Assembly (NCBI GenBank): GCA_964629685.1
Contig: CAZVTT010000001.1
Coordinates: 769,319 to 833,318, forward strand
Direction of reading: 5' to 3'
Origin: an uncultured Gammaproteobacteria bacterium
GTDB taxonomy: Bacteria; Patescibacteriota; Microgenomatia; UBA10105; UBA927
DNA: 64,000 nt
Part shown: piece after piece, positions 2,944 to 21,394 of the stretch
Layout: the number at the start of each line of letters is the position of its first letter
Position numbering within the stretch: the first letter of the stretch is position 1
Made by a program: the position numbers and the translations under genes
Notes under the pieces: generated by a model
The model's database searches: none
Told to the model about the DNA's origin: nothing
Seen by the model: the letters and a program-made list of their open reading frames with translations, nothing else

Positions 2944-4644
2944 CTACTTCGTGCGGTGCAGGATTTGAAACACGGCGCTGTTATCACTTCGTTGTATGAT
3001 TTTATCATAGGTAATGAGCGGGCTGTCCACGCGTGTGCATGTTCCGGCGTTTACATACAGAATATTCGTTTCGCCCACTAGTTGTGTTTTTACTTTTCCT
3101 GTTGGTTCGGAAACGGTATCCATACGTACCGGACAATCATCCGTGGTAAAGGTGTAAGGTCCGAAGGATACCCGATCAAAATCGTTGGTAGCTAGTTGGG
3201 CTGTCTCACGTTGGAATAAAGCAGGATCATATTTCAGATAAAATAACATGAATATTGTGGGTGCGGATTCGCGGTTAGTGATTACCGCCCTATTATATTT
3301 TAGGATTTCCGGATTGATGGATTTGACTAACTCTGCGTATCCTTCCATCCTATACCATGGTTTATGCACCACCTGGTGGATGTAATACTGATGCAGGTAT
3401 TGAGTAAAACCAAATAAACATATAAGTAGCGTACCGGTAAGCAGAATACGTCTTTTTCCGGGCGATATCCGTTTTATGGTTTCCCATAGAGTGCTAATCC
3501 CGAGTGCAGTGCCGATTACGATGGGAATGATCATCACCACTGTCCGTTGCAGGTTCGGAATATCATCAAATGTCAGCGCGCTTCCGATAGGGGCCAGTAG
3601 TAACCAGCCGAATATTACATTTGTATCGGGCGATTTATTTTTGAGTAGGGTGATGAGTCCCAGGAGGATAAGCGGTAGTTCAAAAATATAGAGCAGGCCG
3701 GCACCGGGCACCCTGTATCGGTCGGGAAAACCAGCATCCGTAAAAAGGAATTTATAGGTAAAGTGATCAAAATAATTTTGGATTACCGCTTGCCCATAGC
3801 CTATTAGTTTGTTATGAAAAAGCCGGGAAACAATCGGTTGTATTTTCATTACACCGTCTTCGCGGATGGCTTCGTCGAGCATCAGCTGTGTGCCCTGTGA
3901 CGCGAACACACTTACCGTTTGGATGCGTAGTCCCAAGTTGGGCATTTTAAAAATAATGACGACCGGAATTACGATACACAACGTGTAAAGCAACCAGGTT
4001 TTGCTATGTATTCGTTTTTTTTCAGGAAAGTTCCAGAGCAATACCGGAAGAAAAAGAGGCAAAAATATGCGGGGTGCTTGGTACATAGTCAGAGTTATGC
4101 CAAAACTGGCAAATGCCAATAGTACTAGTGAAATTCGTTTTGAACTAAGACCGCGTCGGTACAACCAGACTCCCAGCAGAATAAAAAATAATACCGGTAT
4201 ATGTTCGGTTGCCGTACGCGAAAGGTTTATGTGCCATGGAGAAACCGCCAACAGAAATGCACCCAGTATTCCTACCGCCTTCCGGTGCTGCAGGGTAGAA
4301 AATTGGAATACGATTAATGCGACAAGCAAAATGCTTAAGGACCCGAATAATGCTGAGGCAAATCGAACGGAATACGCGGATAATCCGAACACCGCGATGA
4401 AAGGAATAGAAAGATATGAGTAGCCACCGGGACTATACAGGAAAGACCGGAAATGCAAAGGAAGGCGCGCCCCGGTCATATCGTTTCCGGTTTTGAGCAG
4501 TGAATAGGCATTGTAGCCCAAAAACGCTTCATCTCTATGCAGACCCGCGGGGATATGACCCAGCTCATGAAAACGGATAACGCCACCCAGGAGTATGGCA
4601 ACAGCAAGTAAAATAATGCCGATATTAATTCGTTTCATGAACAC
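2944..4644 (-). CDS. GT39/PMT_2-like (ArnT/PMT family) GT-C membrane glycosyltransferase, paralog 1
   Basis: N-terminal TM helix, then the loop motif LHRDEAFLGYNAYSLLKTGNDMTGARLPLHF shared with the four other paralogs. Multiple TM helices follow, then a C-terminal soluble domain. Confidence 0.7.
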   Translation of the reverse strand: MFMKRINIGIILLAVAILLGGVIRFHELGHIPAGLHRDEAFLGYNAYSLLKTGNDMTGARLPLHFRSFLYSPGGYSYLSIPFIAVFGLSAYSVRFASALFGSLSILLVALIVFQFSTLQHRKAVGILGAFLLAVSPWHINLSRTATEHIPVLFFILLGVWLYRRGLSSKRISLVLLAFASFGITLTMYQAPRIFLPLFLPVLLWNFPEKKRIHSKTWLLYTLCIVIPVVIIFKMPNLGLRIQTVSVFASQGTQLMLDEAIREDGVMKIQPIVSRLFHNKLIGYGQAVIQNYFDHFTYKFLFTDAGFPDRYRVPGAGLLYIFELPLILLGLITLLKNKSPDTNVIFGWLLLAPIGSALTFDDIPNLQRTVVMIIPIVIGTALGISTLWETIKRISPGKRRILLTGTLLICLFGFTQYLHQYYIHQVVHKPWYRMEGYAELVKSINPEILKYNRAVITNRESAPTIFMLFYLKYDPALFQRETAQLATNDFDRVSFGPYTFTTDDCPVRMDTVSEPTGKVKTQLVGETNILYVNAGTCTRVDSPLITYDKIIQRSDNSAVFQILHRTK

Positions 4645-6265
4645 GTAATGTTTTAATAATTCCGATTCCCAATATCATACACCATGCTCCGATAGAAAAA
4701 ACAGAAATGAGGTTGGTAGCCGTCCGGAATTTAGTTTCCCCAAATTTTATGCTAACGGAATATTCACCCGATGATAAGGGAAATGTAATTAACCCTCTGG
4801 CTGCAGGATCCTGAAATTCAATAGGTACCGGAATACCGTTTGCCGTAACAGTCCAACCGGGATAATAGAGTGTTGATTCGACGAGTTTTGACGGTAAAGT
4901 GGTATGTATGGAATACCGGTGTTCTATCGTCGAACGATAAAGTTCTCGTATTTCCGAATTTCCTTCAACTACCTGCAGCGCATGTTCGGGGGGTGCTGCG
5001 GGGTTTCCTGCACTCCATACCGTAGAAGACTGTCCGTGAAAATCAGTTGGCCCGTTATATGATTTGTAATACTCATCCGAATGCGTAATGACTTCGGGTA
5101 TTGCGGTAGCCATCGGTAAGGAAAATAAACATACGAGTGGTAATAGACACAGTATTACGGTTCGGCGTCCGAACTTTGGCAGGGAGAGCGTAATTGCGCA
5201 GGCAGCCGCGAATGAGGCAAGTGCCATCATCCTCCAAGGAAACTGTAGTTTTTGTAACATAGGTAATGCTCTCCATATGGATGAGGAGCTTGAAATCATC
5301 ATAAACAACGCGATTGTGGTTATTCCCAGGAAAAAAAGTATTCGTTTCGAATGAGCGGTGCGGTGATTAAAATAAAAGACGGAGAGTATCAGCAATAATA
5401 CTGGTAGTATTCCTAATTGCGGCGACAGGCCTTGCGGATCTGCGACAGCGGCGCCATTTCCCCATGTTGACCAGATGAGCTGTATTGGCGTAACAAAATT
5501 TTGTTTATACATGTCACCGATAAATAGAGCAGCATGAGTATATTTCTGTTCCGTGAGGGCCGGGAGCCAAAACCAAGAAGCAAGTGCTAATCCAAATAAT
5601 ACCGCAGTAAAATTTCCGAATCCTTTTTTTCCTGTCCCGGCAGATACAGCCGTATAAAGGATTATGACCGGCAAAAAAATAAGACTTATTCCGTTATGCG
5701 CCAGAATCAGTAGTGCTGTTGTTCCCGACAGGGCTGAGAATGAGAAGGCGGATATTCGCTTCGAGTTTCGGTCTGCACTCAGGAAAATTAATGGTATTAC
5801 GGCCAGTGCCACCAATTCTCCGATATCACCGCGGATATACAGGTTCAGGAAATGGTAGGGTAGTAATCCATAAATTAATGCCCCTAAAAATGCGTACTCG
5901 TCAGCGACATGCTGCTTCATCCACCAGAAAAAATGTAATCCTGCCAATATAAAACTTACCGAGATAAGTATCTTAAATCTGTTTTCATACGATAATCCCA
6001 GTGGGGAAATTGCGGCTGATAAATATCCCGGTAGAGGATAGAAAAAATTAAACACCGGAGAGCCAAACCTGTAATTTAAATCTCCTGCCCATCGGGGAGG
6101 AATGTGGCGGTCGGCAAATGCTTTATCATAGGCAGCAAAGCGGGCAATATTTACTTCACCGTCATGTGATTTCGGTATACCCGGATTAAGCATCGGCACG
6201 GTAAACGCTCCGAGTATTATGAGCAGGATTATGCACCAGTGACGGGTTTGAGGTGGTCGACCCAT
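4625..6265 (-). CDS. YfhO/PTPS-related-type polytopic membrane protein (putative GT-C glycosyltransferase), paralog A
   Basis: Shared N-terminal motif SHDGEVNIARFAAY...IPPRWAGDLNYRFGSPVFNFFYPLPGY. About 12 TM segments. C-terminal domain YYPGWTVTANGIPVPIEFQD..GEYSVSIKFGET. Paralogous to 10303-11961 and 19763-21394. Confidence 0.6.
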   Translation of the reverse strand: MGRPPQTRHWCIILLIILGAFTVPMLNPGIPKSHDGEVNIARFAAYDKAFADRHIPPRWAGDLNYRFGSPVFNFFYPLPGYLSAAISPLGLSYENRFKILISVSFILAGLHFFWWMKQHVADEYAFLGALIYGLLPYHFLNLYIRGDIGELVALAVIPLIFLSADRNSKRISAFSFSALSGTTALLILAHNGISLIFLPVIILYTAVSAGTGKKGFGNFTAVLFGLALASWFWLPALTEQKYTHAALFIGDMYKQNFVTPIQLIWSTWGNGAAVADPQGLSPQLGILPVLLLILSVFYFNHRTAHSKRILFFLGITTIALFMMISSSSSIWRALPMLQKLQFPWRMMALASFAAACAITLSLPKFGRRTVILCLLPLVCLFSLPMATAIPEVITHSDEYYKSYNGPTDFHGQSSTVWSAGNPAAPPEHALQVVEGNSEIRELYRSTIEHRYSIHTTLPSKLVESTLYYPGWTVTANGIPVPIEFQDPAARGLITFPLSSGEYSVSIKFGETKFRTATNLISVFSIGAWCMILGIGIIKTLRVHETN

Positions 6266-6268
6266 ACC

Positions 6269-7975
6269 TTACGGGCGGGAATTTACGAGCACAAATGCTA
6301 TATCCTCAACCGGATATTGAACTATGGTTTGCTTTACGGCGAATACAACCGGCTTTCTGGGGTAGTATACGGTTTTAAGCGGTGTAACATCCTTAGGTTT
6401 ATTATCCGGTGTAGTAACCAGTAACGTCCGTGGTTGTTTCATGTCGTGGTCCCAGTCAATTGCTCTGAATTCAAATTGATTAAATTTTAAAACCGGAATA
6501 AATCCTTCCTCATCCGCGTTTCCTCTCAAAACCGTGTCCTGAAATGATGCCGGTGGAACATGCAGGTAAAACAGTACTGAAGTATAGGGAATTCCTGCCG
6601 CCGGGTCTATGATAACCTTGTCGTACTCAATGCTACTGGTAAGAAGAAAGGCTGCTAAAGCAGGGTCTTCGGCTCGCCAAGCAGGTGCATACACTACCGG
6701 AAATCTGATGGTGTAAGACATGAAATAGTGAATACCGCTAAGCGTGAATAGTATTAATGTTATAAGTGATAAACCGACTTTAATCATTTTCGGACTCCTA
6801 CGGACATACGAAAGGAGTGTCTCATAGCCGGTTGCAAGCACGACCGTAAGCGGAAATAGCAAGAAATAACTTCTGGTCGCGTGCGGTGCTTCGCGGGTTA
6901 AGCTGGCGACACCAACGGTAATAACCGCCCAACCGGAAAGATAGATCATCCAGGATTCTCTCTTTCTCGTCCAAACCCATAGCCCTATCAACATGATTGC
7001 TATTTCGAATAAATAGAATTGTCCGGTAGTAGAAATTCCATGGTTGCCATGTGTTGATCCGGTTATAAAAAAGAAAGGCACAGACAAATAATTCGCGACA
7101 TTTTTAGAAAATTGCATACCATTCAACAGATATGAATTAAAAAAGAGTTGCGGAATTGGTTTAGGAAGCGTGTTAGCAAAACTTCTCAATTCTATTAACG
7201 GTGCTTGCACGACCGCACTTGAGGTTAGCAGCGTTCCTTGTGCGGAAGTTACTCCCCCCAATGACCGGAACGACAATACGAATGGCAGCAAGAGGATTAA
7301 CGTCGGTAATATTGCGATGAGTAATTCACCTTTTCCCGGTGTTTTTTGATTTCGTTTTAGGAATATAAAAGAAAAAACTGCCAGCAACGGAGCCAACATT
7401 CTGGTCAGATTATACGTATATAGTCCCAATACAAAACACAGCAGACTAATACATAACCACCCGCGCTTGTGCTCAAAGGCTTTCATCATTGCCCATGAAC
7501 CTGTCATCAATAAAAATAATCCGATACTGACCTCGAAGGTAGCTCTACTATAATGTATATGCCAGGGATTTACTGTCAGTATTGCAGCCGCAATCAGACC
7601 TGTGTTTTTTTTCTTTGTGAGTTTAGTGACCAATACATACATGAGTATGACGGTAAGCACCCCAAATAATGCGGAAGGGAAGCGTACTGCAAATGGGGTT
7701 AGACCGAATAGCTTTATTGAAATCGCTGCGGTATATATGTATACCGGTAATTTCTGGTCACCGAATGATGTAAAGTAGAGCGGAAAAGAAACGCCGTGCT
7801 CGTCTTTTCCGGTTTCCAGAATGGAATATGCGTTATATCCGATGGCAGTTTCGTCCTGATAGAGTCCGTTAGGAATTGTTCCCAGAGCGTAAAATCGAAT
7901 ACAGGCAGCTATAAAAACCACCAATCCCAATACCCAGAAGTGTTTATTCATGATGCCGTCGTTTCCCGATTGCAT
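6269..7975 (-). CDS. GT39/PMT_2-like GT-C membrane glycosyltransferase, paralog 2
   Basis: Loop motif LYQDETAIGYNAYSILETGKDEHGVSFPLYF after the first TM helix; polytopic. Confidence 0.7.
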   Translation of the reverse strand: MQSGNDGIMNKHFWVLGLVVFIAACIRFYALGTIPNGLYQDETAIGYNAYSILETGKDEHGVSFPLYFTSFGDQKLPVYIYTAAISIKLFGLTPFAVRFPSALFGVLTVILMYVLVTKLTKKKNTGLIAAAILTVNPWHIHYSRATFEVSIGLFLLMTGSWAMMKAFEHKRGWLCISLLCFVLGLYTYNLTRMLAPLLAVFSFIFLKRNQKTPGKGELLIAILPTLILLLPFVLSFRSLGGVTSAQGTLLTSSAVVQAPLIELRSFANTLPKPIPQLFFNSYLLNGMQFSKNVANYLSVPFFFITGSTHGNHGISTTGQFYLFEIAIMLIGLWVWTRKRESWMIYLSGWAVITVGVASLTREAPHATRSYFLLFPLTVVLATGYETLLSYVRRSPKMIKVGLSLITLILFTLSGIHYFMSYTIRFPVVYAPAWRAEDPALAAFLLTSSIEYDKVIIDPAAGIPYTSVLFYLHVPPASFQDTVLRGNADEEGFIPVLKFNQFEFRAIDWDHDMKQPRTLLVTTPDNKPKDVTPLKTVYYPRKPVVFAVKQTIVQYPVEDIAFVLVNSRP

Positions 7976-10313
7976 ATATATAATAACCGTATGCTAGTAA
8001 CCCTAATACACTGATCATAGACAGTTTGAGTCCCATATAAAAGGACACCGGTCTATATTCAAATTGTATCTGGTGTTTTCCTTCCGGAACATATAATCCT
8101 CTGAATGTGTAATTGGTTTTATGTATCGGTACACTCTCCGAATCTATTGTGGCAATCCATCCCGGGTCATACGAATCTGAAAATACCATAAATTTATTGC
8201 CGGTGCTTTGAGTTTGAATCGTGACTTTATTCGGTGAATACATGCTAATCGATGCCGAATCCGCTGCGTCATAAGGTGATAATTCCGTAACTTCCGGATG
8301 CTCTACCAACGCAGTTGTTAAAGGGTTAAACTCATCACTGAAAAATATTTTTTCGAATTCTTCCTTATTCGTGTACGGTTGAATTGTAGAAACAAATTGA
8401 ACCCGAGGAACACTCTTCCGAAACTGATATATACGCCAACCATCCTGGTCATAAACTTGCGAAAATTGAGATGGCGGGTAGCTGGTTTGATCCGTTCCGT
8501 TTTCTATCCGGTCCAGAATATATCCGGTACCGGTTATGGCGAGAATTTTAAGCCGGGCGGCATTTTCTGCAATGTCGGTATTTCCGAATCCCGGAGCTAT
8601 TCGGGCATCGGAACGGGTAGCAGTGTCAAAATTCCGCAAAAGAATTCCGTTGCGGGAAGCACCTAACAATTCACCGTATGATCGCGGATAAAGGGGATCG
8701 TACCCTTCTGCAGAATAGAGTCGGAATGCAGTTGCAAAGTTGGCTTCTATCCCTGCAGAGCCATAACCCCAAAATCGTTCGTACCCCGCCTTATCTTTCA
8801 GCCAGTTTATGACGGCAGTAGGCGGATAAATATATGATGCGGGAACAAAAGGGTTAAATTTTTGTCCGAAATACCATAAGTCGGTTGCTTGAATACATAT
8901 AAGAACCGTCGCAATTATCCATGTTTTTTTTATAAATCGGGGTAGAATAAATACCGAAAGCATGAGTAGAGTAAATACACCCGCAGAAAAAATCCACATG
9001 CTTTTTACGATAGCAATATATTTAGTTATGCCCAAGGCAAAAATTAATCCTAAAATAATTATAAATATCACGGATGAATACAGGGGTTTTTCCTTAGGTT
9101 TCCGTATCCATGTATCAAATCCGTGAGCTCCTAAGACCGCCAGTGCGAAGCTTAGCAAAAAAATCATATTTGCCGGGGAACTGGTAGATATTAACGGTAT
9201 GGGGATACGGTAGAGCCATTCGCTAAAGGGTGTGCGGATTACAAGTAATAATAAAATTATGGCCATGCCGCCGAAAAATTTGGTGTTTCCCGATTGCTTA
9301 TTATTTCTTAACGCCAGATGTACAAAAAATAAACAAATCAGACCCACATACATGGCTTTACCGGGATAAGATCCCGGATCGGTGTAATTTCTGGTGGCCG
9401 GATTACCGAATATATCCGGAGAAAAAAGCATAAAAATTTGCTTTGGCTGGATTAAAAGGTTTTCTATCAGGAAGTTGTACGGTTGATTGACCCGAGCAGA
9501 TTCGCCCAGTAACGTAACTGTCGGGATTAACTGAAAAGAAATCAAACCCAACCCGATTGTCGTTAAGAGTATCTGCCTGATCAATACGGTTTTGGAATTT
9601 CTGAGTGTAACTGCCATATATCCCAGAATTGCAGTCAAAGATACGACAAAAATTTGTAAATGTCCTGCAAGTCCGGACATAGTTAACGCGGTAATATAAA
9701 CGATAGACCAGCGGACACTCGATTTTTCCTTTAGTCGGATTATTGCCGTAAACGCGAGCGGCAGCCACATGAATACATGGCCAATCGTGTTGTATTCTAA
9801 GAAGACGGTCATAAATAACGAAAGACCGAATGCGACAGCACCGAACACGGCACTAACGCGGGTAAGTGCTTGTGATCGAAGAAACATATACGTAAATAGC
9901 ATGGCTAACGCCGGTTGGGCTATAACCAAAATTGTCCAGGCAATAACCGTGGGGAATAAAATATACAGCAGGTGAAATGGGTAAAATACGGCAGATTGTG
10001 AATTTGCATGGAGCGGACTTCCCGAGAAATTATAAGGATTCCACAGCGGTATATTCCCCGACTTCCAGATGTCTGCAGCAAGTGCATGCCATGGGTATAT
10101 CTGTCGTACGGTATCGAAATATTGGGCTTTATTCGGAATTGAACCTGCTGTATAGCCATTATAAGAATATGACTGCCATGGTTTATATTCTGAAAGTAAG
10201 ATATCTCCCGGGAAGGGAATTAATCCCAGGAAAATACTTTTATAAAAGTAGGCAGCGCAAACAACTATAAACGTGCATATCGGAAGCCAGCGGATAAGTA
10301 CTTTAAGCTGCAT
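7944..10313 (-). CDS. YfhO-family polytopic membrane protein (putative GT-C glycosyltransferase)
   Basis: The N-terminal region FPGDILLSEYKPW...IWKSGNIPLWNPYNFSGSPLHANSQSAVFYPF resembles the YfhO signature. Many TM helices. C-terminal TNYTFRGLYVPEGKHQIQFEY is followed by a terminal TM helix. Confidence 0.65.
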   Translation of the reverse strand: MQLKVLIRWLPICTFIVVCAAYFYKSIFLGLIPFPGDILLSEYKPWQSYSYNGYTAGSIPNKAQYFDTVRQIYPWHALAADIWKSGNIPLWNPYNFSGSPLHANSQSAVFYPFHLLYILFPTVIAWTILVIAQPALAMLFTYMFLRSQALTRVSAVFGAVAFGLSLFMTVFLEYNTIGHVFMWLPLAFTAIIRLKEKSSVRWSIVYITALTMSGLAGHLQIFVVSLTAILGYMAVTLRNSKTVLIRQILLTTIGLGLISFQLIPTVTLLGESARVNQPYNFLIENLLIQPKQIFMLFSPDIFGNPATRNYTDPGSYPGKAMYVGLICLFFVHLALRNNKQSGNTKFFGGMAIILLLLVIRTPFSEWLYRIPIPLISTSSPANMIFLLSFALAVLGAHGFDTWIRKPKEKPLYSSVIFIIILGLIFALGITKYIAIVKSMWIFSAGVFTLLMLSVFILPRFIKKTWIIATVLICIQATDLWYFGQKFNPFVPASYIYPPTAVINWLKDKAGYERFWGYGSAGIEANFATAFRLYSAEGYDPLYPRSYGELLGASRNGILLRNFDTATRSDARIAPGFGNTDIAENAARLKILAITGTGYILDRIENGTDQTSYPPSQFSQVYDQDGWRIYQFRKSVPRVQFVSTIQPYTNKEEFEKIFFSDEFNPLTTALVEHPEVTELSPYDAADSASISMYSPNKVTIQTQSTGNKFMVFSDSYDPGWIATIDSESVPIHKTNYTFRGLYVPEGKHQIQFEYRPVSFYMGLKLSMISVLGLLAYGYYIYAIGKRRHHE

Positions 10314-11961
10314 GGTGAAGGGAATGTGAACGTTTTTTCATAAATATATAGATGAATGGTAATATGACGATGCTCGATATTGATATGACATCACTTACTG
10401 CCCGTATTTTACTTTCACCAAATGTTATCTCCACATGATGTGTTCCTGCGGGAACTGCGAAGGTAATTTCTCCGCGCCAATTCTGATCCTGGAACTCAAT
10501 AGGCGTTACTTGTCCGTCAATTTTAACCCGCCAACCGGGAAAGTATTGAGTGTGACTTACCAACCTGGCATCGCCATCGGCAGTCACCGTGAATTGCTGG
10601 AGTTGTGTCTTTTGGGAAAAATAGGAAATTCCGGCTTTTCCGGCAATGACTTCAATTCGTTCCGGGGGGTATCCTTTGGCCGGGCCGGCAGACCAAATGA
10701 CGTCAGTTTCGCCGAAGTACGTAGTATTTAACGGATAGTTCCAGAAATCCGACTCGTTAACCCTGTCATATCCCTGTGTCGGTTGCCAGTAAAAAACTGT
10801 TGCCAGAACCGTAATTCCTAAAATGCCGAATAGTACTTTCTGTTTATGCATGCGGGGAAAATGAAACAGTAACGGACTCAAAAACGCGGTGGTGAATGTA
10901 AGTACAGCCAAAAGTCTCCAGGGAAATTGAAACTGCCTGAGCCAGCTAATATTTTGCCAGACCGGAATGGTAATGGGATGCATAAACAGCAATGCGGTCA
11001 ATGTAGGTATCAGGGAAAAAAGCAGAATTTTTTTTGTGAACCGATCCAGCTTTTTGAATTTGGTTAATAGAAACAAACCTATCATCAGTATAAACGTGTG
11101 AAATAAGCCGATGTGTACTGAGATCTCCGAAACCCGTAAGGATTTGTCATCAAATAAATTGGGAATAAAGAAATTTATAAAGCGTGGGAAATTTACTTTA
11201 AATAAATCTTTCATAAATAAATCGCCGTAGGTGTATTTGTGTTCTGCAAGTGCCGGTATCCAATACCAGGCGGCCATACATAGTCCGAGACTTAACGATA
11301 ACGCACCGGCAGCGGTATGCTTTTTTGAAGGGCTGAAAAGGAGCAGCCACCAAATGCAAAGTGCGAAAAAAACCAGAGCCAGGGAATTGTGGGAAATAAT
11401 CATAAATGCGGTGGCTAAAGCGGTTATGAGTACGGCGCTAAATTCAATTTTTTTCGTGAGTTTCGTGAGTCCGTACAAAATTAACGGAAAAAACGTATAC
11501 GCATATATCCCGCCGATGCTTCCCCGTACCAGAATTTCTATGAGTCTGTACGGGGCAAATTGGTAAAAAACGGTAAGTATAAGCGCTTTCCGGTTGTCCT
11601 CGTAAAAAGCCTTCCCGAACAGAAACATAAAAATTCCCGCTCCGAGGAAACTCAATGCCAACAGTATTTTAAAAGCGGTTACGAGAGGCACCCCGACAGC
11701 TATGAGCGGTGCCGCGATTAAAAATGCGGTATGGTATATGAATACAAAAAGCGGCATTCCGTATCCATAATTTAGCTCTCCCGCCCATCTGACTGGAATA
11801 TGCAAGTCAGCCAGCGCTTTATAATAAGCCGCCATTCTCGGAATCTGAACGCCGCCGTCACTGGTATGCGGGAGCAGGGGATTTAAAAAAATGCCTATAA
11901 ACGGTAAAAGAGAGAGAATAATAATGAGTAAATAGTAACGGCTATTGTGGAGACGATTCAT
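10303..11961 (-). CDS. YfhO/PTPS-related-type polytopic membrane protein, paralog B
   Basis: HTSDGGVQIPRMAAY...IPVRWAGELNYGYGMPLFVFIY and C-terminal YFPGWRVKIDGQVTPIEFQDQNWRGEITFAVPAGTHHVEITFGES. Confidence 0.6.
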   Translation of the reverse strand: MNRLHNSRYYLLIIILSLLPFIGIFLNPLLPHTSDGGVQIPRMAAYYKALADLHIPVRWAGELNYGYGMPLFVFIYHTAFLIAAPLIAVGVPLVTAFKILLALSFLGAGIFMFLFGKAFYEDNRKALILTVFYQFAPYRLIEILVRGSIGGIYAYTFFPLILYGLTKLTKKIEFSAVLITALATAFMIISHNSLALVFFALCIWWLLLFSPSKKHTAAGALSLSLGLCMAAWYWIPALAEHKYTYGDLFMKDLFKVNFPRFINFFIPNLFDDKSLRVSEISVHIGLFHTFILMIGLFLLTKFKKLDRFTKKILLFSLIPTLTALLFMHPITIPVWQNISWLRQFQFPWRLLAVLTFTTAFLSPLLFHFPRMHKQKVLFGILGITVLATVFYWQPTQGYDRVNESDFWNYPLNTTYFGETDVIWSAGPAKGYPPERIEVIAGKAGISYFSQKTQLQQFTVTADGDARLVSHTQYFPGWRVKIDGQVTPIEFQDQNWRGEITFAVPAGTHHVEITFGESKIRAVSDVISISSIVILPFIYIFMKKRSHSLHHAA

Positions 11962-12024
11962 GTGGTATAAATTTGGATTTTGCTTCCGTGTGCGTATAGC
12001 CGTATTATAACAGAGGTGTTACAC

Positions 12025-13554: not shown

Positions 13555-13575
13555 GTTTAGTACAATATAACTGCT

Positions 13576-14847
13576 ATGGAGCATCTTTTTGCGCTCAATG
13601 CTATCCTTTTATTTGCTTTGGGATTTCCCCTGGTTATGAAATACAGGATTCTTCCCGTTGAGGGAACTCCATACTGGCTATTTGGTGTTTTGTTTGTACT
13701 GTGGGTGGGTAATTGTGCGTTGGCGTTTTTCCGAAAACAAATTGAAAAAAAATTACCCGTTCAAAGTATCAGGAATGTTATTTTGGTCGTTAGTTTGACT
13801 TTAGTTATCGGTGGAATCACGTGGACATCAATAGCGGATAGGCACAGAGTTGCTCCCGTTTGGGGTGTACACGATATTATTTTGCAGCAGGAAGCTGCCA
13901 TGCGCTATCTGGTTACGGGGAAGAATCCGTATAAAGAAACCTATTTCGGTACGCCGGTCGAAAGTTTTAAATATGACGAGATGGGTGAAGCTGCCGTAAA
14001 TCCTGCACTATATCATTTTGTCATGCCGCCGTGGTATTTACTTTTCCCCTTTAGTGTTTACGTTCCTGCTAACCGGTTATTCGGCTACTTCGACGGAAGA
14101 ATGGTATCTTTGCTGTGTCTCTTGGGTACACTCTATATCTTGTGGCGTTGGTTCCATACCCGTGAATTGGGTGTACTTGCAATTATCTTGACCGCGTTAT
14201 CTCCCGGCATAGTGGAGTATTTTATTGAAGGCCGCAGTGATGCGTTTGCATTGTTCTGGATGCTGTTGGCATTTTTTCTGTTGGATAGCAAACGGTATAT
14301 TTCATCGGCAATCGTGTTCGGACTGGCATTTTTAAGTAAGCAAACCATCTGGTTTGCGACCCCCATTTTTTTTGTTTTACTGTGGTTAAAAAGTAATTCC
14401 CGTAAAACGGTTATTCGCTCCGTTATTGCTACCGGAATAGTTGTGTTAGCATTAGTGACGCCGTTTTTGCTTTGGGATGCGGAGGCTTTTTTCGCGAGTA
14501 CGGTATTTTATTTAAGCGGCAGTGCGAATTTAGCAACCAGTTATCCCGTATCAGGTTACGGGTTCGGAATGCTTTTGCACTCGTTGGGTTTTATCCGTTC
14601 AATACATGATTATTATCCATTTACTATCTGGCAGATACTCTGCGGGCTCCCCGTTCTCGGATTTGGCATATGGCGGCTCAAAAAACAACCCAAAGTATCA
14701 ACCGCGCTATTTGTATACGGATTATTTCTCTGTATCGTTTGGTATTTCAGCCGGTATTTTAACAACAGCCACGTCGGAGTTGTTGCACAACTCTTAGGCT
14801 TGGCACTGCTAAAACAGGCAGATGAGTATCGGGAGAATGCGACATGA
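13576..14847 (+). CDS. Integral membrane protein, possibly DUF2029/GT87-like mannosyltransferase family
   Basis: 423 aa and hydrophobic throughout (about 10 TM). No soluble domain. Lies upstream of the GT39 triplet. The family call is tentative. Confidence 0.4.
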   Translation: MEHLFALNAILLFALGFPLVMKYRILPVEGTPYWLFGVLFVLWVGNCALAFFRKQIEKKLPVQSIRNVILVVSLTLVIGGITWTSIADRHRVAPVWGVHDIILQQEAAMRYLVTGKNPYKETYFGTPVESFKYDEMGEAAVNPALYHFVMPPWYLLFPFSVYVPANRLFGYFDGRMVSLLCLLGTLYILWRWFHTRELGVLAIILTALSPGIVEYFIEGRSDAFALFWMLLAFFLLDSKRYISSAIVFGLAFLSKQTIWFATPIFFVLLWLKSNSRKTVIRSVIATGIVVLALVTPFLLWDAEAFFASTVFYLSGSANLATSYPVSGYGFGMLLHSLGFIRSIHDYYPFTIWQILCGLPVLGFGIWRLKKQPKVSTALFVYGLFLCIVWYFSRYFNNSHVGVVAQLLGLALLKQADEYRENAT

Positions 14848-16457
14848 AACGACGATTCCTGCTGATTTGGTTCGTGTTAGTGCTCGTTGCCGCAATATTG
14901 CGGATCTATGGGATCTCGCAGAATCCTCCGGGATTATCCTGGGATGAAGTCTCAATCGGGTACAACGCATATAGTATTCTTAAGACAGGCGCTGATGAGC
15001 ACGGGAAAATATTACCACTGGACACCTTTGTAGCGTACGGAGATTATAAACCGCCGCTATCTATCTATATTACCGTTCCGTTCGTATCTGTATTTGGATT
15101 AAACGCATTGGCTGTCCGTTTACCGTCGGCGCTGTTCGGTATTGCATTAGTCGTGCTTATATTTCCGTTAGTAAAACAACTGTACTCAGATAAAACGCAG
15201 GCAGAGTATTTAGGTCTGATCGCGACCGGTGTGATGGCTTTTTCGCCATGGCATATTAATTTATCCAGGGCGGGCTTTGAGGCTAACATTGCCACAACAC
15301 TGGTGGCCTTTGGTGTTTATGCTATCCTGCGTGCCCGCTCAGCCATTTTCTGGCGATACTGGTGTTGGATACCGTTTGTATTGGCCATGTATACCTTTAA
15401 CAGCGCCCGTTATTTGGTTCCGCTTTTGGGTGTTGTATTGCTCTATCCGCTTCGGCTGGAGATAGTAAAATCCAAAAAAAATTGGTTAGTGGGAATGGTT
15501 TTGGCATTTGTTTTTTTAGTTCCGCTTATACCTCACCTGTTATCGCCTCAGGCACGATTGAGGTTTACGGAGGTGAATATTTTTTCGGATAGTTCCGTCG
15601 TTATCACGGCAAATGAACGGATTGCTGCAGACGGGAATTCAATATTCAGTTCTATCCTGAATAACAGAAGGATCGGATATGCCAGAAGTTATCTAACACA
15701 TTTTTTTGATCACTTTGAACCTTGGTTTTTATTTATCCGCGGTGATGGTAATCCAAAATTTTCCATTCAGGATGTGGGTCAGCTCTATATGGTGGAAGCC
15801 CCCTTTCTGATAGTCGGTTTGTTCTGGTGGATACTTCACGCCAGAAAGAGCGGAATATTGTTGCTGACATGGCTACTGCTGGCCATTATTCCTGCTGCAA
15901 CAGCTCGTGAAACTCCCCATGCTTTACGGATAGAAAATTCTTTACCCGTCTGGCAGTTATTTATTGCAGGAGGAGTTCTTTCGGTATGGGTGTCCGTACG
16001 TCAGCGTATCCGCCGTAACATCGTAATCCTACTTTGCCTGGGACTTTGGTTCGGGAATATTATTTTTTACATACATAACTATTACCAACACTACCCGCGG
16101 CAATATTCAGGGGAGTGGCAATACGGGTATAAGGAAGCACTCCAAAATGCTTTTCCGCTGGTATCGTCATATAAACACGTAGTGATTTCCGAGCGGATAG
16201 GCAGGGCATATATGTACGTATTGTTTTATTCTCAATTTGATCCGCGGAAGTTTATTGCTGATAAAGAATCATTTTTTGATGCGGCGGGTTTTTATAACGT
16301 GGTTAGGTTTGATAAATACCGTTTTGTAAAAGAAGCTCCGGCATTTGAACCGGATACGCTTTACATACTGCCTCCTGATCAGGTTCCGTCGGGAGCACAC
16401 GTGTTAACTACCGTTAGGCTATTAAACGGCAACCCTGTTTTAGTCCTGTTTGATTAA
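14844..16457 (+). CDS. GT39/PMT_2-like GT-C membrane glycosyltransferase, paralog 3
   Basis: LSWDEVSIGYNAYSILKTGADEHGKILPL motif; polytopic; ATGA overlap with the upstream gene. Confidence 0.7.
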   Translation: MKRRFLLIWFVLVLVAAILRIYGISQNPPGLSWDEVSIGYNAYSILKTGADEHGKILPLDTFVAYGDYKPPLSIYITVPFVSVFGLNALAVRLPSALFGIALVVLIFPLVKQLYSDKTQAEYLGLIATGVMAFSPWHINLSRAGFEANIATTLVAFGVYAILRARSAIFWRYWCWIPFVLAMYTFNSARYLVPLLGVVLLYPLRLEIVKSKKNWLVGMVLAFVFLVPLIPHLLSPQARLRFTEVNIFSDSSVVITANERIAADGNSIFSSILNNRRIGYARSYLTHFFDHFEPWFLFIRGDGNPKFSIQDVGQLYMVEAPFLIVGLFWWILHARKSGILLLTWLLLAIIPAATARETPHALRIENSLPVWQLFIAGGVLSVWVSVRQRIRRNIVILLCLGLWFGNIIFYIHNYYQHYPRQYSGEWQYGYKEALQNAFPLVSSYKHVVISERIGRAYMYVLFYSQFDPRKFIADKESFFDAAGFYNVVRFDKYRFVKEAPAFEPDTLYILPPDQVPSGAHVLTTVRLLNGNPVLVLFD

Positions 16458-18102
16458 TATGAAAACATTTTTAACTAAAAATCGGTTAATTCTGGGAATT
16501 TTATGTATAGGTTTTATGCTAAGGATTTGGCAACTGGGATCAGTTCCGCCCAGCCCGGATTGGGATGAAGCTGCCTTAGGATATAACGCGTATTCAATAC
16601 TAAAAACCGGAAGAGATGAATACGGTATCTGGTTTCCGCGTACGTTGCGTTCGTTTGATGATTATAAACCACCGCTCTATATGTACCTGACGATACCGTC
16701 GGTAGCTATTTTCGGTCTGGATACTTGGACTGTACGGTTGCCGTCCGTGGTGATGGGAATGTTCGCAATTTGGGGAGTCTTTCTCATGACCGGAGAGTTG
16801 CTGCGGAGGACAAACGAAAAGAAAGAGTTTCGGGCCATGCCCTATCTGAGTGCATTGCTATTGGCAATCTCTCCTTGGCATATTCAATTTTCGCGAATAG
16901 CATTTGAAGCAAATACCGGCGTTACGTTAAATATTTTGGGAGTATATACGTTGTTGCGGGGATTTAGGTCGCCTCGTTGGTTATTGGGGAGTGCTGCTTT
17001 ATTTGCCTTAAGTCTCTACGCGTATCATAGCCAACGGATATTTGCACCGCTTCTGGTATTGTTACTCGGCGGCATTTTTTGGCATGAACTTCGTCGGGTT
17101 AACCTTAAGTTCATACTAGGTGCGTTTGTTGTTGGTATATTGGTCATAGCGCCCTTGATACCGGTTATTTTTGATACGACGGCCTTAACACGTTTACGCG
17201 GAACCAGTTCACTTTCCGATCAGACCAGATTATTGGCAAATAGTGTAGAAAAATTGGACGCAGATCAGAAAGCCGGTAATAGAATCGGATTGTTGCTCGA
17301 TAACAGACGTCTGGTATGGGCGCGAACATTGGCGGAAGGATATGTATCCCATTTTTCACTGCGTTGGTTATTTCTGACCGGAGATAATGCCAGGCATCAT
17401 GCTCCCGATAATGGTTTACTGTATCTTTGGGAATTGCCATTTCTATTCTTGGGAATGTTGTGGGTCTTTCATAAAGGGAAAATATTACGCTCTTTGCTTT
17501 TCGGTTGGTTGCTGCTTGCGCCGGTTGCCGCTTCACCGACAACGGAGTTACCTCATGCTATTAGGACATTGGTTTTTTTACCTGTATGGCAGATATTTAC
17601 GGCATTCGGAATCGTGTATGCCTGGCGTCGGATTCAAACATATCGTTCCCCAATAACTCGCGTTATGACGCTTGGCGTTGTAATCGCGATAGTATTTAAT
17701 CTTGTCTTTTATCTTTATATGTATTTCCGGCAGTTAAACAGGGAATATTCTCCTTATTGGCAGTATGGGTATAGGCAGGCTGTACTTTATACACAGCAGC
17801 ACTACGATGCGTATCAGAAAATAATCGTGTCTACGAAATTGGAACAACCTCACATGTTTTTCCTTTTTTACCTGAAATATGATCCCGTTTTATATCTGTC
17901 TAATGGGGGGACTAAGTCCGGGGGATTTGCAGAGGTCAGGAATGCATTCGGTAAGTACGAATTCAGACCGATTCATTGGGAGCAGGAGAAACGTGACGGG
18001 ACCGAATTATATATCGGTACACCGAATGAAATTAGCGGAAGCCGGCTGGAGACGATTTATTATCTGGACGGAAAAGAAGCGATAATTATTGCCGACCGTT
18101 AA
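16450..18102 (+). CDS. GT39/PMT_2-like GT-C membrane glycosyltransferase, paralog 4 (alternative start ATG 16459)
   Basis: PDWDEAALGYNAYSILKTGRDEYGIWFP motif. C-terminal soluble domain YLKYDPVLY...GGFAEVRNAFGKYEFRPIHW is shared with paralog 5. Confidence 0.7.
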   Translation: MINMKTFLTKNRLILGILCIGFMLRIWQLGSVPPSPDWDEAALGYNAYSILKTGRDEYGIWFPRTLRSFDDYKPPLYMYLTIPSVAIFGLDTWTVRLPSVVMGMFAIWGVFLMTGELLRRTNEKKEFRAMPYLSALLLAISPWHIQFSRIAFEANTGVTLNILGVYTLLRGFRSPRWLLGSAALFALSLYAYHSQRIFAPLLVLLLGGIFWHELRRVNLKFILGAFVVGILVIAPLIPVIFDTTALTRLRGTSSLSDQTRLLANSVEKLDADQKAGNRIGLLLDNRRLVWARTLAEGYVSHFSLRWLFLTGDNARHHAPDNGLLYLWELPFLFLGMLWVFHKGKILRSLLFGWLLLAPVAASPTTELPHAIRTLVFLPVWQIFTAFGIVYAWRRIQTYRSPITRVMTLGVVIAIVFNLVFYLYMYFRQLNREYSPYWQYGYRQAVLYTQQHYDAYQKIIVSTKLEQPHMFFLFYLKYDPVLYLSNGGTKSGGFAEVRNAFGKYEFRPIHWEQEKRDGTELYIGTPNEISGSRLETIYYLDGKEAIIIADR

Positions 18103-18107
18103 CCCTT

Positions 18108-19766
18108 ATGCAAAAACAGTTTTTCGCAGCGATACGGAAGCACGGTATTTGGATTGTACTTTTCTGTGCATTATTGCTGAGGCTGTATGCTATAGAACAC
18201 GTTCCTCCCAGTCCTTCTTTAGATGAGGTTTCGTTAGGGTATAATGCCTATTCCATTTTAAGGACCGGAATGGATGAGTTTGGTACCCGGTATCCCATCA
18301 TATTGCGGGCATATGACGATTTTCGTCCGGCCCTGTATGTCTACGCAGTAGCGCCGATGGTCGCTGTTTTCGGATTAACACCGTTAGCTGTACGGTTGCC
18401 CTCAGTTCTCTTGTCGTTAGCAAGTATTTGGGGATCATATATGATTGTTAAAACGTGGTTCTTGCTTTACTGGCAGCAGGTAAAGACAAAACGATTTGCA
18501 GAAGAAGCAGCATTGGGAACCGCCTTATTGCTGGCAATATCCCCGTGGCATATATATCTCTCCCGGTTGGGTCATGAAGTAAATTTAGGATTAGCATCCG
18601 TAATTATATCGATTCTGGTATTTTTCCGCGCCCTTAGTACGAAACGTTTTGGGTGGTTAATCCTTTCTGCTTGTACTTTCGGTTTAGCGTTCTATAGCTA
18701 TCAGAGTGAAAAAGTAGTTGTACCGTTGGTTCTTTTAGCATTGGGTATGTTGTTTCTTCGCGAATTGTGGAAGACTAAACGCACCGAATTAATCATTTCA
18801 TTGTTGGTAGGGTTTATTTTAGTAACGCCAATGACCGTACAATCCTTGAGCAAACAGGGAATGCTGCGATATACCGCCACATCCGCATTTACCGAGGGAA
18901 ATCCGATTTATGCACGGGATCGTCAGAATTTCGTGGCAGCAAAAACAAAGGGGAATATAGTGGGACAGTTACTTGCTTACCCGAAATTTTCATCACTAAA
19001 AATATTTTTGGGAAATTATTTTTCACATTTTAATATCGGCTGGTTATTTTTCGGTGGCCAACATGAAAGCCATAAGGTTCCGAACCTCGGATTACTGTAC
19101 GTATGGGAGTTTCCGTTTATCGTAATCGGTATATGGCTGTTCCTAAAATCACCCTTTCCGGGCAAATTAAAGTGGTTTGTAACAGTATGGTTTTTGTCTG
19201 CGGCAGTACCGGCAGCCATTACCACTCAGGCTCCTCACGCAATGCGTTCCTTGACGTTTCTGCCGTTATGGCAATTTTTTTCTGCTTACGCAGCGGCTTA
19301 TCTCATTGCGCGTATTCAATGGCCGGTGATTATCGGTTTAACGGTAGCGGTTATGGCAAGCATAATATCGTTTAATACAAATTATTTTCGCGTATTTCCC
19401 GTGACGCAGTCAGACTCGTTTCAATTCCCCTTGTCGCAAGCCCTGCCCGTTGTATTTGAACTGGAAGACGGGTATAAGCACATAGTGGTATCGAATGAAG
19501 ACGCGCTGTACCAGTCCTATATGTTTTATCTGTTTAACCGAAAGTATGATCCAAAAATGTATCTGAAAATGGGAGGTACCGTCAGTGGCGGATTTGCCGA
19601 AAAACATAGTATCGGAAAATACGAATTTAGGCCGTTACATCCGGGTGAAAAAATGGAGCCGGATGTCCTGTACGTTGGGAATCCGCAGGATTTTAACGGC
19701 GGAACAACCGTAAGGGAATTTACAAACTTAGCAGGACAAACGCGAGTGGTTGTGAAAACATTATGA
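18108..19766 (+). CDS. GT39/PMT_2-like GT-C membrane glycosyltransferase, paralog 5
   Basis: PSLDEVSLGYNAYSILRTGMDEFGTRYP motif. C-terminal YLKMGGTVSGGFAEKHSIGKYEFRPLHP matches paralog 4. Confidence 0.7.
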   Translation: MQKQFFAAIRKHGIWIVLFCALLLRLYAIEHVPPSPSLDEVSLGYNAYSILRTGMDEFGTRYPIILRAYDDFRPALYVYAVAPMVAVFGLTPLAVRLPSVLLSLASIWGSYMIVKTWFLLYWQQVKTKRFAEEAALGTALLLAISPWHIYLSRLGHEVNLGLASVIISILVFFRALSTKRFGWLILSACTFGLAFYSYQSEKVVVPLVLLALGMLFLRELWKTKRTELIISLLVGFILVTPMTVQSLSKQGMLRYTATSAFTEGNPIYARDRQNFVAAKTKGNIVGQLLAYPKFSSLKIFLGNYFSHFNIGWLFFGGQHESHKVPNLGLLYVWEFPFIVIGIWLFLKSPFPGKLKWFVTVWFLSAAVPAAITTQAPHAMRSLTFLPLWQFFSAYAAAYLIARIQWPVIIGLTVAVMASIISFNTNYFRVFPVTQSDSFQFPLSQALPVVFELEDGYKHIVVSNEDALYQSYMFYLFNRKYDPKMYLKMGGTVSGGFAEKHSIGKYEFRPLHPGEKMEPDVLYVGNPQDFNGGTTVREFTNLAGQTRVVVKTL

Positions 19767-21394
19767 ACTCACGAAAAATAGGGTTATTCATACTTTTACT
19801 CCTTTCTTTTTTACCCGTAATTTCACTATTACAGCCGGGCTTACCGGTAACGCACGATGCACAGGATCATGTGGTCAGAATTGCAAATTTTTTCCGGTCT
19901 TTTATGGAGGGAAATCTTATACCGCGTTGGGGAGGAGACTTAAATTGGGGATTTGGTCACCCGGTACTCATGTTTCTTTATCCACTCCCTTCGTATGTGG
20001 CGGTTTTTTTCCGGTTGGTAGGACTCAGTTTTGTTGATAGTACCAAAATGGTATTCGGGCTTGCATACGTTGCGAGTATTCTGACGTTCTATGTATGGGC
20101 GAGGCGACAATGGGGGAATGCAGCAGGATTCGCAGGAGCGATTGCTTACGGATTTGCACCGTACAGATTCGTGGATTTGTATGTCCGTGGAGCAATTGGC
20201 GAACATGTGGCTTTTATTTTCCCGCCCTTAATTTTGTTTGGCTTGTGGCTATCCGCACATAAGAAACAGTCTCAGTTTATTCAACTGTTATGTATCTCAG
20301 GGGGAGTTGCAGGTTTAGTGCTATCACACAATGCAGTAAGTCTGATGGTGCTTCCTGTGGTACTTCTCTATTCGTTATATTTGGCGAAGTATCATTCGGA
20401 CAGACCAAAGAGTTTTCTGTTGTGGATATTTGCCGCGCTGTCTGCGGGTATGGCCCTCTCCGCATTTTTCTGGATTCCTGCTTTGCTCGAAGGAAAGTAT
20501 ACCTTGCGGTATATCGTAACCGCAGGAGAAGTTCTCCAGCGATTCGTTCCGTTATCTCAGTTATTCTATTCTCCGTGGAATTATGGTGGCGGAAATGATT
20601 TTTCGAAACAAGTGGGAGTACTGCAATGGTTAAGTATTGTAGGATTGGTAGGAATCGTATGGCGTAACGGCATACGTCGTGAACAAAGCCGGTTGTCGTT
20701 CGGTATTGTTATCGTGTGCCTTTTTTCTATATGGATGACGACAGGCTGGTCCGGTTTCCTCTGGAAACATGTTCCGTTGTTGCAAACGTTTCAGTTCTCC
20801 TGGCGTTTTCTTACTCTGACCGTGTTTGCTACCGCAGCAGCGGTGGCGCAGTGCATATCATTTTTATCGGCACGCGTTAGACGATGGATTGTCCTTCTCT
20901 TTACGTGCATCACACTTATTCTTACGGTAGGCATGTGGCACCCAAAAACGTACAAGGTATATGATCCGCATTTTTTTACGAATATATATCAGGGGACTAC
21001 GGATACCGGTGAAAGTAGTCCTATCTGGTCCGTTCGTTTTATGGAACGAATACCTCCTGCTCCGCTGGAATTAATAGCCGGTGAAGCATCGTTCGTCGCT
21101 TTAGAAAGGTCTTCCACATTTCATGAATACAGAGTAATTGCACGTACAAAGTCACGTTTGGTAGAAAATACGTTATACTTTCCGGGTTGGGTTTTACTGG
21201 TAGACGGGGTAAAAGTCGAACCACAATTCCAGGACCCTGACTACCGCGGACTTATGACATTTTGGTTAGAGACGGGTGAGCATACCGTCCAATTTATGTT
21301 TACGGATACGAAAGTGCGTAAGATAGCAAACACCATAAGTATGATATCCGCGGTAGCAATTCTGGTTTTGTTCGGAAAGCGGTTAGTTTTATGA
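19763..21394 (+). CDS. YfhO/PTPS-related-type polytopic membrane protein, paralog C
   Basis: VTHDAQDHVVRIANFF...IPRWGGDLNWGFGHPVLMFLYPLPSY and C-terminal LYFPGWVLLVDGVKVEPQFQDPDYRGLMTF...GEHTVQFMFTDT. Overlaps the upstream GT39 by 4 nt. Confidence 0.6.
   Translation: MNSRKIGLFILLLLSFLPVISLLQPGLPVTHDAQDHVVRIANFFRSFMEGNLIPRWGGDLNWGFGHPVLMFLYPLPSYVAVFFRLVGLSFVDSTKMVFGLAYVASILTFYVWARRQWGNAAGFAGAIAYGFAPYRFVDLYVRGAIGEHVAFIFPPLILFGLWLSAHKKQSQFIQLLCISGGVAGLVLSHNAVSLMVLPVVLLYSLYLAKYHSDRPKSFLLWIFAALSAGMALSAFFWIPALLEGKYTLRYIVTAGEVLQRFVPLSQLFYSPWNYGGGNDFSKQVGVLQWLSIVGLVGIVWRNGIRREQSRLSFGIVIVCLFSIWMTTGWSGFLWKHVPLLQTFQFSWRFLTLTVFATAAAVAQCISFLSARVRRWIVLLFTCITLILTVGMWHPKTYKVYDPHFFTNIYQGTTDTGESSPIWSVRFMERIPPAPLELIAGEASFVALERSSTFHEYRVIARTKSRLVENTLYFPGWVLLVDGVKVEPQFQDPDYRGLMTFWLETGEHTVQFMFTDTKVRKIANTISMISAVAILVLFGKRLVL

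Follow-up and report, generated by a model that had tools for sequence, protein, structure and literature searches.

Multi-component transmembrane glycosylation proceeds in three steps: a GT-A glycosyltransferase (GT) makes a lipid-phosphate sugar, a flippase moves the sugar, and on the outer side of the membrane a GT-C enzyme of PMT_2 or YfhO type carries out the transfer (PMC8035078). Here we analysed a stretch of 64,000 nucleotides from contig CAZVTT010000001.1 (positions 769,319 to 833,318 of the forward strand; hereafter the window). Comparison of its open reading frames (ORFs) with Pfam and with one another revealed that positions 2944-21394 are one run of 11 consecutive GT-C genes, G1-G11: five close PMT_2 paralogs, one distant PMT_2, one GT87, three PTPS-related and one YfhO gene. 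One junction of this array, G2→G1 (arrows give the direction of transcription), is a real, conserved and translationally coupled module across many Microgenomates genomes, but it is facultative and asymmetric.

The array consists of two divergent, densely packed operons, G5-G4-G3-G2-G1 on the minus strand and G6-G11 on the plus strand. Close PMT_2 paralogs (G1, G3, G8, G9 and G10) are referred to as A family, and G2, G5 and G11 as B family.

G1, 2944-4644, minus strand: PMT_2/PMT-type GT-C, A family, last gene of the minus-strand operon (Pfam PMT_2 41.8 bits, PMT 36.1 bits)
G2, 4625-6265, minus strand: PTPS_related (PF10131) GT-C, B family (Pfam 54.8 bits, cut-off 26.4)
G3, 6269-7975, minus strand: PMT_2/PMT-type GT-C, A family, with Pfam matches to PMT_2 and PMT; member of the conserved G5→G4→G3 block
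G4, 7944-10313, minus strand: YfhO-family GT-C of 789 aa (Pfam YfhO 82.1 bits)
G5, 10303-11961, minus strand: second PTPS-related paralog, B family, homologous to G2; first gene of the minus-strand operon
G6, 11980-13554, plus strand: distant PMT_2-type GT-C, first gene of the plus-strand operon (Pfam PMT_2 47.5 bits)
G7, 13576-14847, plus strand: GT87-type GT-C (Pfam GT87 42.1 bits)
G8, 14844-16457, plus strand: PMT_2/PMT-type GT-C by Pfam, A family
G9, 16450-18102, plus strand: PMT_2-type GT-C by Pfam, A family; sister paralog of G10, 36% identical
G10, 18108-19766, plus strand: PMT_2-type GT-C, A family, upstream of G11 (Pfam PMT_2 41.3 bits)
G11, 19763-21394, plus strand: third PTPS-related paralog, B family, homologous to G2; last GT-C of the plus-strand operon

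In its components the array is similar to the CsbB/GtcA/YfhO, GtlA/GtlB, Csd and GacI-L systems (PMC8035078), with its PMT_2 and YfhO GT-Cs and, close by, small GT2s of which one or two resemble lipid-phosphate-sugar synthases. Further features in common with CsbB/GtcA/YfhO-type systems are a candidate Wzx-type flippase encoded in the surrounding island and an acidic motif which, by our placement, would lie in an extracytoplasmic loop. However, those systems consist of one GT-A and one GT-C, whereas the array contains eleven GT-Cs of four families with coupled GT-C→GT-C junctions. In contrast to the Gram-positive systems, moreover, PTPS_related has no characterised member, and no teichoic-acid machinery was identified in the window.

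Two GT-Cs located in one operon together with a GT-A and an epimerase are known from Streptococcus mutans (PgfS, PgfM1, PgfE, PgfM2). Glycosylation there depends on PgfM1, whereas loss of PgfM2 does no more than shift the mobility of glycoproteins (bioRxiv 10.1101/2024.05.05.592596). This essential/modifying relation resembles the core/add-on asymmetry of G1 and G2 described below. The C-terminus of G4 weakly matches the PgfM1/PgfM2 models (30 bits, equivalog cut-offs being 1400-1500). On the contrary, both Pgf GT-Cs are of YfhO type, whereas G2 and G1 belong to different families, and no adhesin substrates are encoded in the window.

GT-C paralogs also lie side by side in mycobacterial embCAB/aft loci for arabinan and mannan assembly, where they build one extracytoplasmic polymer from lipid-phosphate sugars. 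A structural model of G2 matches AftD, AftA and Emb structures at fold level (TM-score 0.4-0.5); sequence searches detected no similarity of array proteins to Emb or Aft. The heterodimers Pmt1-Pmt2 and EmbA-EmbB pair paralogs of the same family. Within the array this arrangement fits G8/G9 but not the PMT_2/PTPS pairs. Constant co-occurrence of partners, as would be expected of a heterodimer of this kind, is not observed for G2 and G1 either, as 34 of 73 G1 orthologs lack an adjacent G2 in their loci.

Composition of the array and recurrence of the mixed pair

A first-pass annotation of the window had described three places where a GT39-like gene directly adjoins a YfhO/PTPS-related-like gene. 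All ORFs concerned are present with the coordinates and spacings it gave, and the junctions were confirmed from the sequence. The G3 stop codon is followed by "ggt" and then by the G2 ATG (3-nt gap), and G10 and G11 share ATGA (4-nt overlap). The G2 stop codon TAA lies at 4627-4625; the overlap with G1 is 20 nt if G1 starts with GTG at 4644 and 14 nt if it starts with ATG at 4638, the latter start being more likely. All array junctions are equally tight, ranging from a 32-nt overlap to a 21-nt gap, and tightness is thus not peculiar to mixed pairs.

If the longest ORFs are taken, the starts of G5 and G6, which diverge from each other, are separated by only 18 nt (11962-11979); with the shorter G6 call on the Logan contig the distance is about 63 nt. 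With a gap this narrow, promoters of both operons would lie largely within coding sequence. A scan for promoters and terminators gave counts at or below shuffle expectation and was uninformative on operon limits.

The family labels of the annotation, PMT_2/PMT (GT39-like) and YfhO/PTPS-related, agree with Pfam and with full-length homology. G1, G3 and G8 match both PMT_2 and PMT, and G6, G9 and G10 match PMT_2 only, in all cases above the Pfam gathering threshold. Paralogs of the A family share 27-37% identity; G6 resembles them in the N-terminal region only. "GT39", which in its strict sense implies a polyprenyl-phosphate-mannose donor and Ser/Thr residues of proteins as acceptor, is for the array PMT_2 genes a label at family level only. 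The PMT_2 family also includes enzymes decorating wall polymers (PMC8035078, Table 2).

B paralogs are 28-34% identical to each other. G5 and G11 are without Pfam match at E<=0.01, and their full-length identity to G2 is 32% (E 3e-86) and 34% (E 2e-91), respectively. Nearly all of 120 G2 homologs among the matches listed carry PF10131. G4 matches YfhO (PF09586) over the family model with 82.1 bits, the cut-off being 28.5. Its C-terminal part resembles G5, G11 and G2 (E 4e-6 to 0.015), and this similarity comprises the C-terminal beta-sandwich and the last helix only. Since the B family and the YfhO protein G4 have this C-terminal module in common (E 4e-6), the label "YfhO/PTPS-related-like" is fair; judged from sequence, G2, G5 and G11 are YfhO-related proteins and not members of YfhO. 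No pairwise similarity was detected between G2 (PF10131) and G1 (PF13231; E>3).

To describe the G2 protein structurally, an AlphaFold (AF2) model was built from an alignment of 87 homologs (predicted local distance difference test score, pLDDT, 95; predicted TM-score, pTM, 0.93). In this model, transmembrane helices form a bundle at the N-terminus, and the C-terminal part consists of a beta-sandwich (residues 430-508) with one last transmembrane helix behind it (512-545). Foldseek comparison with the PDB returned as top matches only GT-C enzymes, namely STT3, PglB, AftD, AftA, Emb, ArnT and Pmt4, with probability 1.00 for STT3, PglB, AftD, AftA, ArnT and Pmt4; as their TM-scores show, these matches are at fold level only. 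G2 is accordingly modelled with a GT-C fold. PTPS_related is a family of Pfam clan GT-C (CL0111) with no known function (PMC7801869). Sequence searches of the PDB with the B profile, the G1 profile and G4 yielded no meaningful match, and the AF2 model of G1, built from the five window paralogs only, was too poor for a fold search (pLDDT 54).

GT-C enzymes carry their catalytic acid just past the first helix. At this place the B family has an invariant D35 preceded by a nearly invariant H34 (87 homologs). In the A family, D38-E39 (G1 numbering) is invariant in 15 G1 orthologs as well as in G1, G3, G8, G9 and G10 of the window, and probably sits in the first extracytoplasmic loop. Since no A or B paralog has lost its acidic motif behind the first transmembrane helix, both members of each "pair" look like complete, active enzymes.

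The claim of a recurrent coupled pair stands as far as the junctions themselves are concerned, but their number does not exceed chance. Labels were shuffled over the 11 array genes (7 PMT-like, 3 PTPS-like, 1 YfhO) and same-strand PMT-like/PTPS junctions were counted: 3 were observed and 3.4 expected (P(>=3)=0.79). An analytic count for 7 PMT-like versus 4 YfhO/PTPS-like genes predicted 5.1 mixed junctions, and 5 were seen. Moreover, the three occurrences rest on two PTPS-type genes, with G2 counted on both sides; the third PTPS paralog, G5, is flanked by the YfhO gene G4 and by divergent G6. Gene order, said to be preserved across the copies, is in fact mixed, with the PMT-like gene first in G3→G2 and G10→G11 and the PTPS gene first in G2→G1. 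The "recurrent pair" of the window thus appears to result simply from 7 PMT-like and 4 YfhO/PTPS-like genes being packed next to one another. That two gene types adjoin within a long homogeneous array is no evidence of partnership.

Junctions in related genomes

Two sets of loci were compared. The B-anchored set comprises 37 loci (L003-L039), one genome per species, whose ORFs were classed by BLAST to G1-G11 and by family hidden Markov models. The G1-anchored set comprises 80 metagenome loci (L040-L119) found by a scan with a G1-ortholog profile. Together they make 117 related loci of the candidate phyla radiation (CPR). Orthologs of each window paralog occur in dozens of related genomes, at 40-58% identity. 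In the B-anchored loci, array junctions were found as follows:

G2→G1: 14/17 loci, mostly with 4-nt overlap
G3→G2: 1/17 loci with a true G3 ortholog
G4→G3: 4/6 loci
G5→G4: 4/4 loci
G8→G9: 11/11 loci
G9→G10: 4/12 loci
G10→G11: 4/4 G10 orthologs, or 4/7 when counted from the G11 side

Conservation of the mixed pairs is therefore uneven: G2→G1 and G10→G11 are kept in related genomes, but G3→G2 is lineage-specific. In 2/7 loci the G11 ortholog is preceded by a G6-like gene. Upstream of G2, the commonest neighbour in both data sets is a GT87 gene (G7 ortholog; 23 of 49 loci), an A-type gene being present in 11 of 49. By comparison, the same-family junction G8→G9 is more constant than the mixed pairs: it was found in all scorable loci of both sets (11/11 and 13/13, i.e. 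24/24; L004-L026 and L050-L112). A specific partnership of the two GT-C types, as the first-pass annotation had suggested, is not supported, given the rarity of G3→G2, GT87 as usual upstream neighbour of G2 and the greater constancy of G8→G9.

Analysis of gene order revealed that the sub-blocks G2→G1, G5→G4→G3 and G8→G9(→G10→G11) are conserved but reshuffled between genomes. G2→G1 stays together while its surroundings rearrange, and both G2→G1 and G8→G9 persist at 40-50% protein identity. YfhO-type genes are elsewhere mostly found in separate "YfhO + GT2 + GT2" or GT4 modules.

The G2→G1 module is not symmetric. Among metagenome loci with a G2 ortholog, the two genes are adjacent in 38/40. Seen from the other side, only 39 of the 73 G1 orthologs with a visible upstream neighbour are immediately preceded by G2, the overlap being exactly 4 nt in 27 cases. 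This leaves the 34 already mentioned, and 27 of the 73 are without any B-type gene in the fetched locus. On a neighbour-joining (NJ) tree of 81 G1 orthologs, presence and absence of adjacent G2 require at least 13 changes.

Nor do distance matrices (mirror-tree approach) reveal co-evolution of G2 and G1 above background. The correlation between G2 and G1 is r=0.50 (43 loci), which is background level, non-adjacent combinations giving 0.42-0.63. The highest value of all combinations belongs to G8-G9 (r=0.85-0.89). A common set of seven genomes gave the same ranking.

Several ORFs in these loci deserve separate mention. Those of about 200 aa beside G1 in loci lacking G2 were considered as B remnants and rejected, being S-adenosylmethionine (SAM) methyltransferases or a HAD-like protein. 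A family of SAM-dependent methyltransferases of about 200 aa lies beside G1 orthologs in many genomes, just upstream or downstream (L056:3612-4211, L074:5366-5986 and 10 similar ORFs). The window itself encodes a methyltransferase of 298 aa (2011-2907) convergent to G1. The Woesebacteria genome Ch104a encodes a B-type protein of 1020 aa (L034:9881-12943); its C-terminal half, about 480 aa long, matches no Pfam family. This protein was examined as a Rosetta-stone fusion and rejected, because PTPS_related is its only domain and PMT_2 is missing.

More distant CPR lineages (L023, L024, L027-L033, L036) display a different conserved module of the same families: a tandem B→B arrangement, usually followed by a GT2 and then a Wzx-like flippase, and in several loci preceded by a distant A-type gene. 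In L028-L033 a Polysacc_synt_3 gene follows the B-type genes.

Readings of the G2→G1 module and origin of the array

With moderate confidence, we regard the array genes as autonomous GT-C enzymes acting in sequence on a shared extracytoplasmic acceptor, with the step of G2 added to that of G1 and dependent on it. Of the two options raised in the first-pass annotation, we thus favour consecutive steps on the same acceptor. Small GT2 enzymes of the island would make polyprenyl-phosphate-sugar donors, which would then be flipped outward; each GT-C would transfer one sugar from such a donor onto the shared acceptor. Surface proteins rich in Ser/Thr, or else a glycopolymer of the wall or one anchored in the membrane, might serve as this acceptor. 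Successive or alternative linkages could be supplied by the many GT-Cs, with G2 performing a facultative step added to that of G1. G2 is almost never present without G1 and G1 is often present without G2, a pattern expected if one transferase needs the product of the other. Candidates for the first steps are encoded next to each other:

23227-23913, plus strand: small GT2 of 228 aa, candidate polyprenyl-phosphate-sugar synthase (Pfam Glycos_transf_2 124.5 bits)
23910-25166, plus strand: Wzx-like (Polysacc_synt) candidate flippase (Pfam PF01943 53.9 bits)

The best NCBIfam matches of the GT2 are AglJ (115 bits), dolichyl-phosphate hexose transferase and PpgS, all below equivalog cut-offs. The Wzx-like candidate flippase gene shares its locus with the eleven GT-C genes; no GtrA-type gene was identified in the window.

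Several points weigh against sequential action. No donor, acceptor or product is known for any array gene, and PF10131 lacks a characterised member. The order of G1 before G2 follows solely from the asymmetry of presence and absence. This asymmetry was measured in two samples anchored on different genes and spanning +/-6-10 kb only, so that G2 could sit elsewhere in the genome. A stoichiometric complex, too, could account for the conserved 4-nt overlap of G2 and G1. For 11 GT-Cs there are few candidate donor synthases, no more than one or two GT2 genes being similar to lipid-phosphate-sugar synthases, and deep nodes of the NJ phylogenies are weak.

It is conceivable, though rather unlikely, that the neighbours are linked by shared regulation only and that the GT-Cs decorate unrelated acceptors (proteins, lipids, wall polymers), their junctions being kept by a low breakpoint rate in tight operons. 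Precedent exists in Firmicutes, where GT-A/GT-C pairs serve different polymers (PMC8035078). The chance-level junction count in the window, free reshuffling of sub-blocks between genomes and background-level co-evolution of G2 and G1 point in the same direction. However, the asymmetric dependence of G2 on G1 is not expected under this explanation, nor is the persistence of G2→G1 and G8→G9 over large protein divergence amid rearranged gene order. The GT-Cs also share one island with common sugar-nucleotide and lipid-sugar genes.

Unlikely to a still greater degree is that G2/G1, and perhaps G10/G11, form a mixed-family GT-C heteromer, which would be held at 1:1 stoichiometry by translational coupling and whose two catalytic sites or ectodomains would work jointly on one acceptor. 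The constancy of G2→G1 where G2 is present (14/17 genome and 38/40 metagenome loci, mostly with exact ATGA overlap), its integrity amid rearranged surroundings and the existence of GT-C heterodimers such as Pmt1-Pmt2 (6p25) and EmbA-EmbB (7bvc), both in the Foldseek list of G2, would suit such a complex. It has further been speculated that small GT-Cs may need a partner for acceptor binding (PMC8035078). Against this, G1 dispenses with an adjacent G2 in nearly half of the loci and with any B-type gene of the locus in 27/73, and 13 or more changes of the linkage are needed on the G1 tree. This speaks against an obligate form of the heterodimer that was the other option of the first-pass annotation, as does the mirror-tree correlation of G2-G1, which is not above that of non-adjacent combinations and well below that of G8-G9 (0.85). 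Each protein keeps its own catalytic motif and its own C-terminal ectodomain, and no fusion protein was seen among the loci, the 1020-aa B protein being without a PMT_2 domain. Finally, the two heterodimers of that list each consist of paralogs of one family, whereas G2 and G1 come from different families.

To estimate how the array arose, NJ trees with bootstrap were constructed for both families. G10 forms a clade with G9 (70-90% bootstrap) and groups with G1 or G3 in 0%. The B tree has the topology ((G2,G5),G11), supported at 89-99%. G10, the partner of G11, appears from its tree to have arisen together with its tandem neighbour G9. Other nodes of the A tree are weak: G1 and G3 are sisters at 18%, and their placement relative to G8-G10 has 18-42%.

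Array paralogs, at 27-37% identity, are more diverged than orthologs in other genomes (40-58%), suggesting that the duplications are old and predate these lineages. A search for DNA-level repeats between array paralogs found none except one inverted match of 106 nt (72%) between G3 (7780-7885) and G9 (16534-16639), over the N-terminal Asp-Glu/GYNAYS motif region. Recent duplication of array genes was rejected, as no DNA repeat extends beyond this match.

That a PMT_2 + PTPS gene pair was the unit duplicated to build the locus, as the first-pass annotation proposed, is very improbable, given that G10 is sister to G9, that the sister of G2, namely G5, lies next to no co-oriented A gene, that G8 and G9 have no B partner, that five close A lineages face three B lineages, and that the old copies share no DNA-level similarity. 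Some observations nevertheless lean toward it. Both families are multi-copy and interleaved in the window, and the nearest co-oriented A genes of the sisters G2 and G5 are G1 and G3, respectively (G3 lying beyond the YfhO gene G4). Over all loci together, A-B junctions exceed label shuffling (43 versus 31, P=0.002), the loci not being independent. With G1 and G3 joined as sisters at 18% bootstrap, at most one very old pair duplication, (G2,G1) versus (G5,..,G3), is possible.

The glycan island and its host

The whole window is an island of glycan and sugar biosynthesis, making up about 7% of the contig of about 0.95 Mb; GT-C genes occupy 18.5 kb. Besides the array, the island contains eight GT2 and eight GT4-type ORFs, seven sugar epimerase/dehydratase genes, a DegT aminotransferase, two hexapeptide acyltransferases, the Wzx-like flippase and methyltransferases. 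A B12/radical-SAM enzyme (27285-28898), a sulfotransferase (54672-55610), an APH-like kinase (55597-56709) and a split transketolase (58601-60345) are also encoded.

Three large proteins without Pfam match (32634-35378, 914 aa; 41894-45403, 1169 aa; 45692-47782, 696 aa) have a YfhO/PTPS-like layout: about 11-12 hydrophobic segments at the N-terminus are followed by a large middle domain, and a single transmembrane helix closes the protein. Profile comparison to the B family gave 80% probability for the 1169-aa protein (E 1e-5), 30% for the 696-aa and 3% for the 914-aa protein. Counted with these, the window may hold up to 14 GT-C-like genes.

The host is a Microgenomates/Levybacteria-like CPR bacterium with a genome of about 0.95 Mb. 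G2 has homologs in Levybacteria, Gottesmanbacteria, Woesebacteria and the "Patescibacteria group". Many records of metagenome-assembled genomes with this CPR-type locus are titled "uncultured Gammaproteobacteria bacterium", an apparent mislabel (L007-L010, L015-L017, L021, L022, L024, L028-L033, L037).

CPR bacteria have tiny genomes, and the scale at which glycan genes fill this small contig is notable. The array genes fall into known families, but a mixed GT-C array of this size and conservation is unusual in a sub-megabase CPR genome. Within the literature collection searched, no work was found linking CPR, Patescibacteria or Levybacteria to GT-C or mannosyltransferase arrays. Levybacteria-like genomes have the array in common, and surface glycans therefore probably play a central part in envelope building or host contact of these episymbionts.

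From the sequence comparisons, G8/G9 rather than any mixed pair emerges as the most promising candidate for a GT-C complex, comparable to the EmbA-EmbB or Pmt1-Pmt2 heterodimer. A bolder proposal, to which we give little credence, is that Levybacteria-type CPR build a major envelope glycopolymer almost wholly outside the membrane by means of a dozen or more GT-Cs of four families, similar to arabinan and mannan synthesis in mycobacteria, with G8/G9 as an EmbA-EmbB-like heterodimer and G2/G1 as a mixed-family complex. If this were true, a PTPS_related (PF10131) enzyme would receive its first assigned role. In any case, PF10131 gains a concrete hypothesis: it may perform a facultative step dependent on a specific PMT_2 enzyme.

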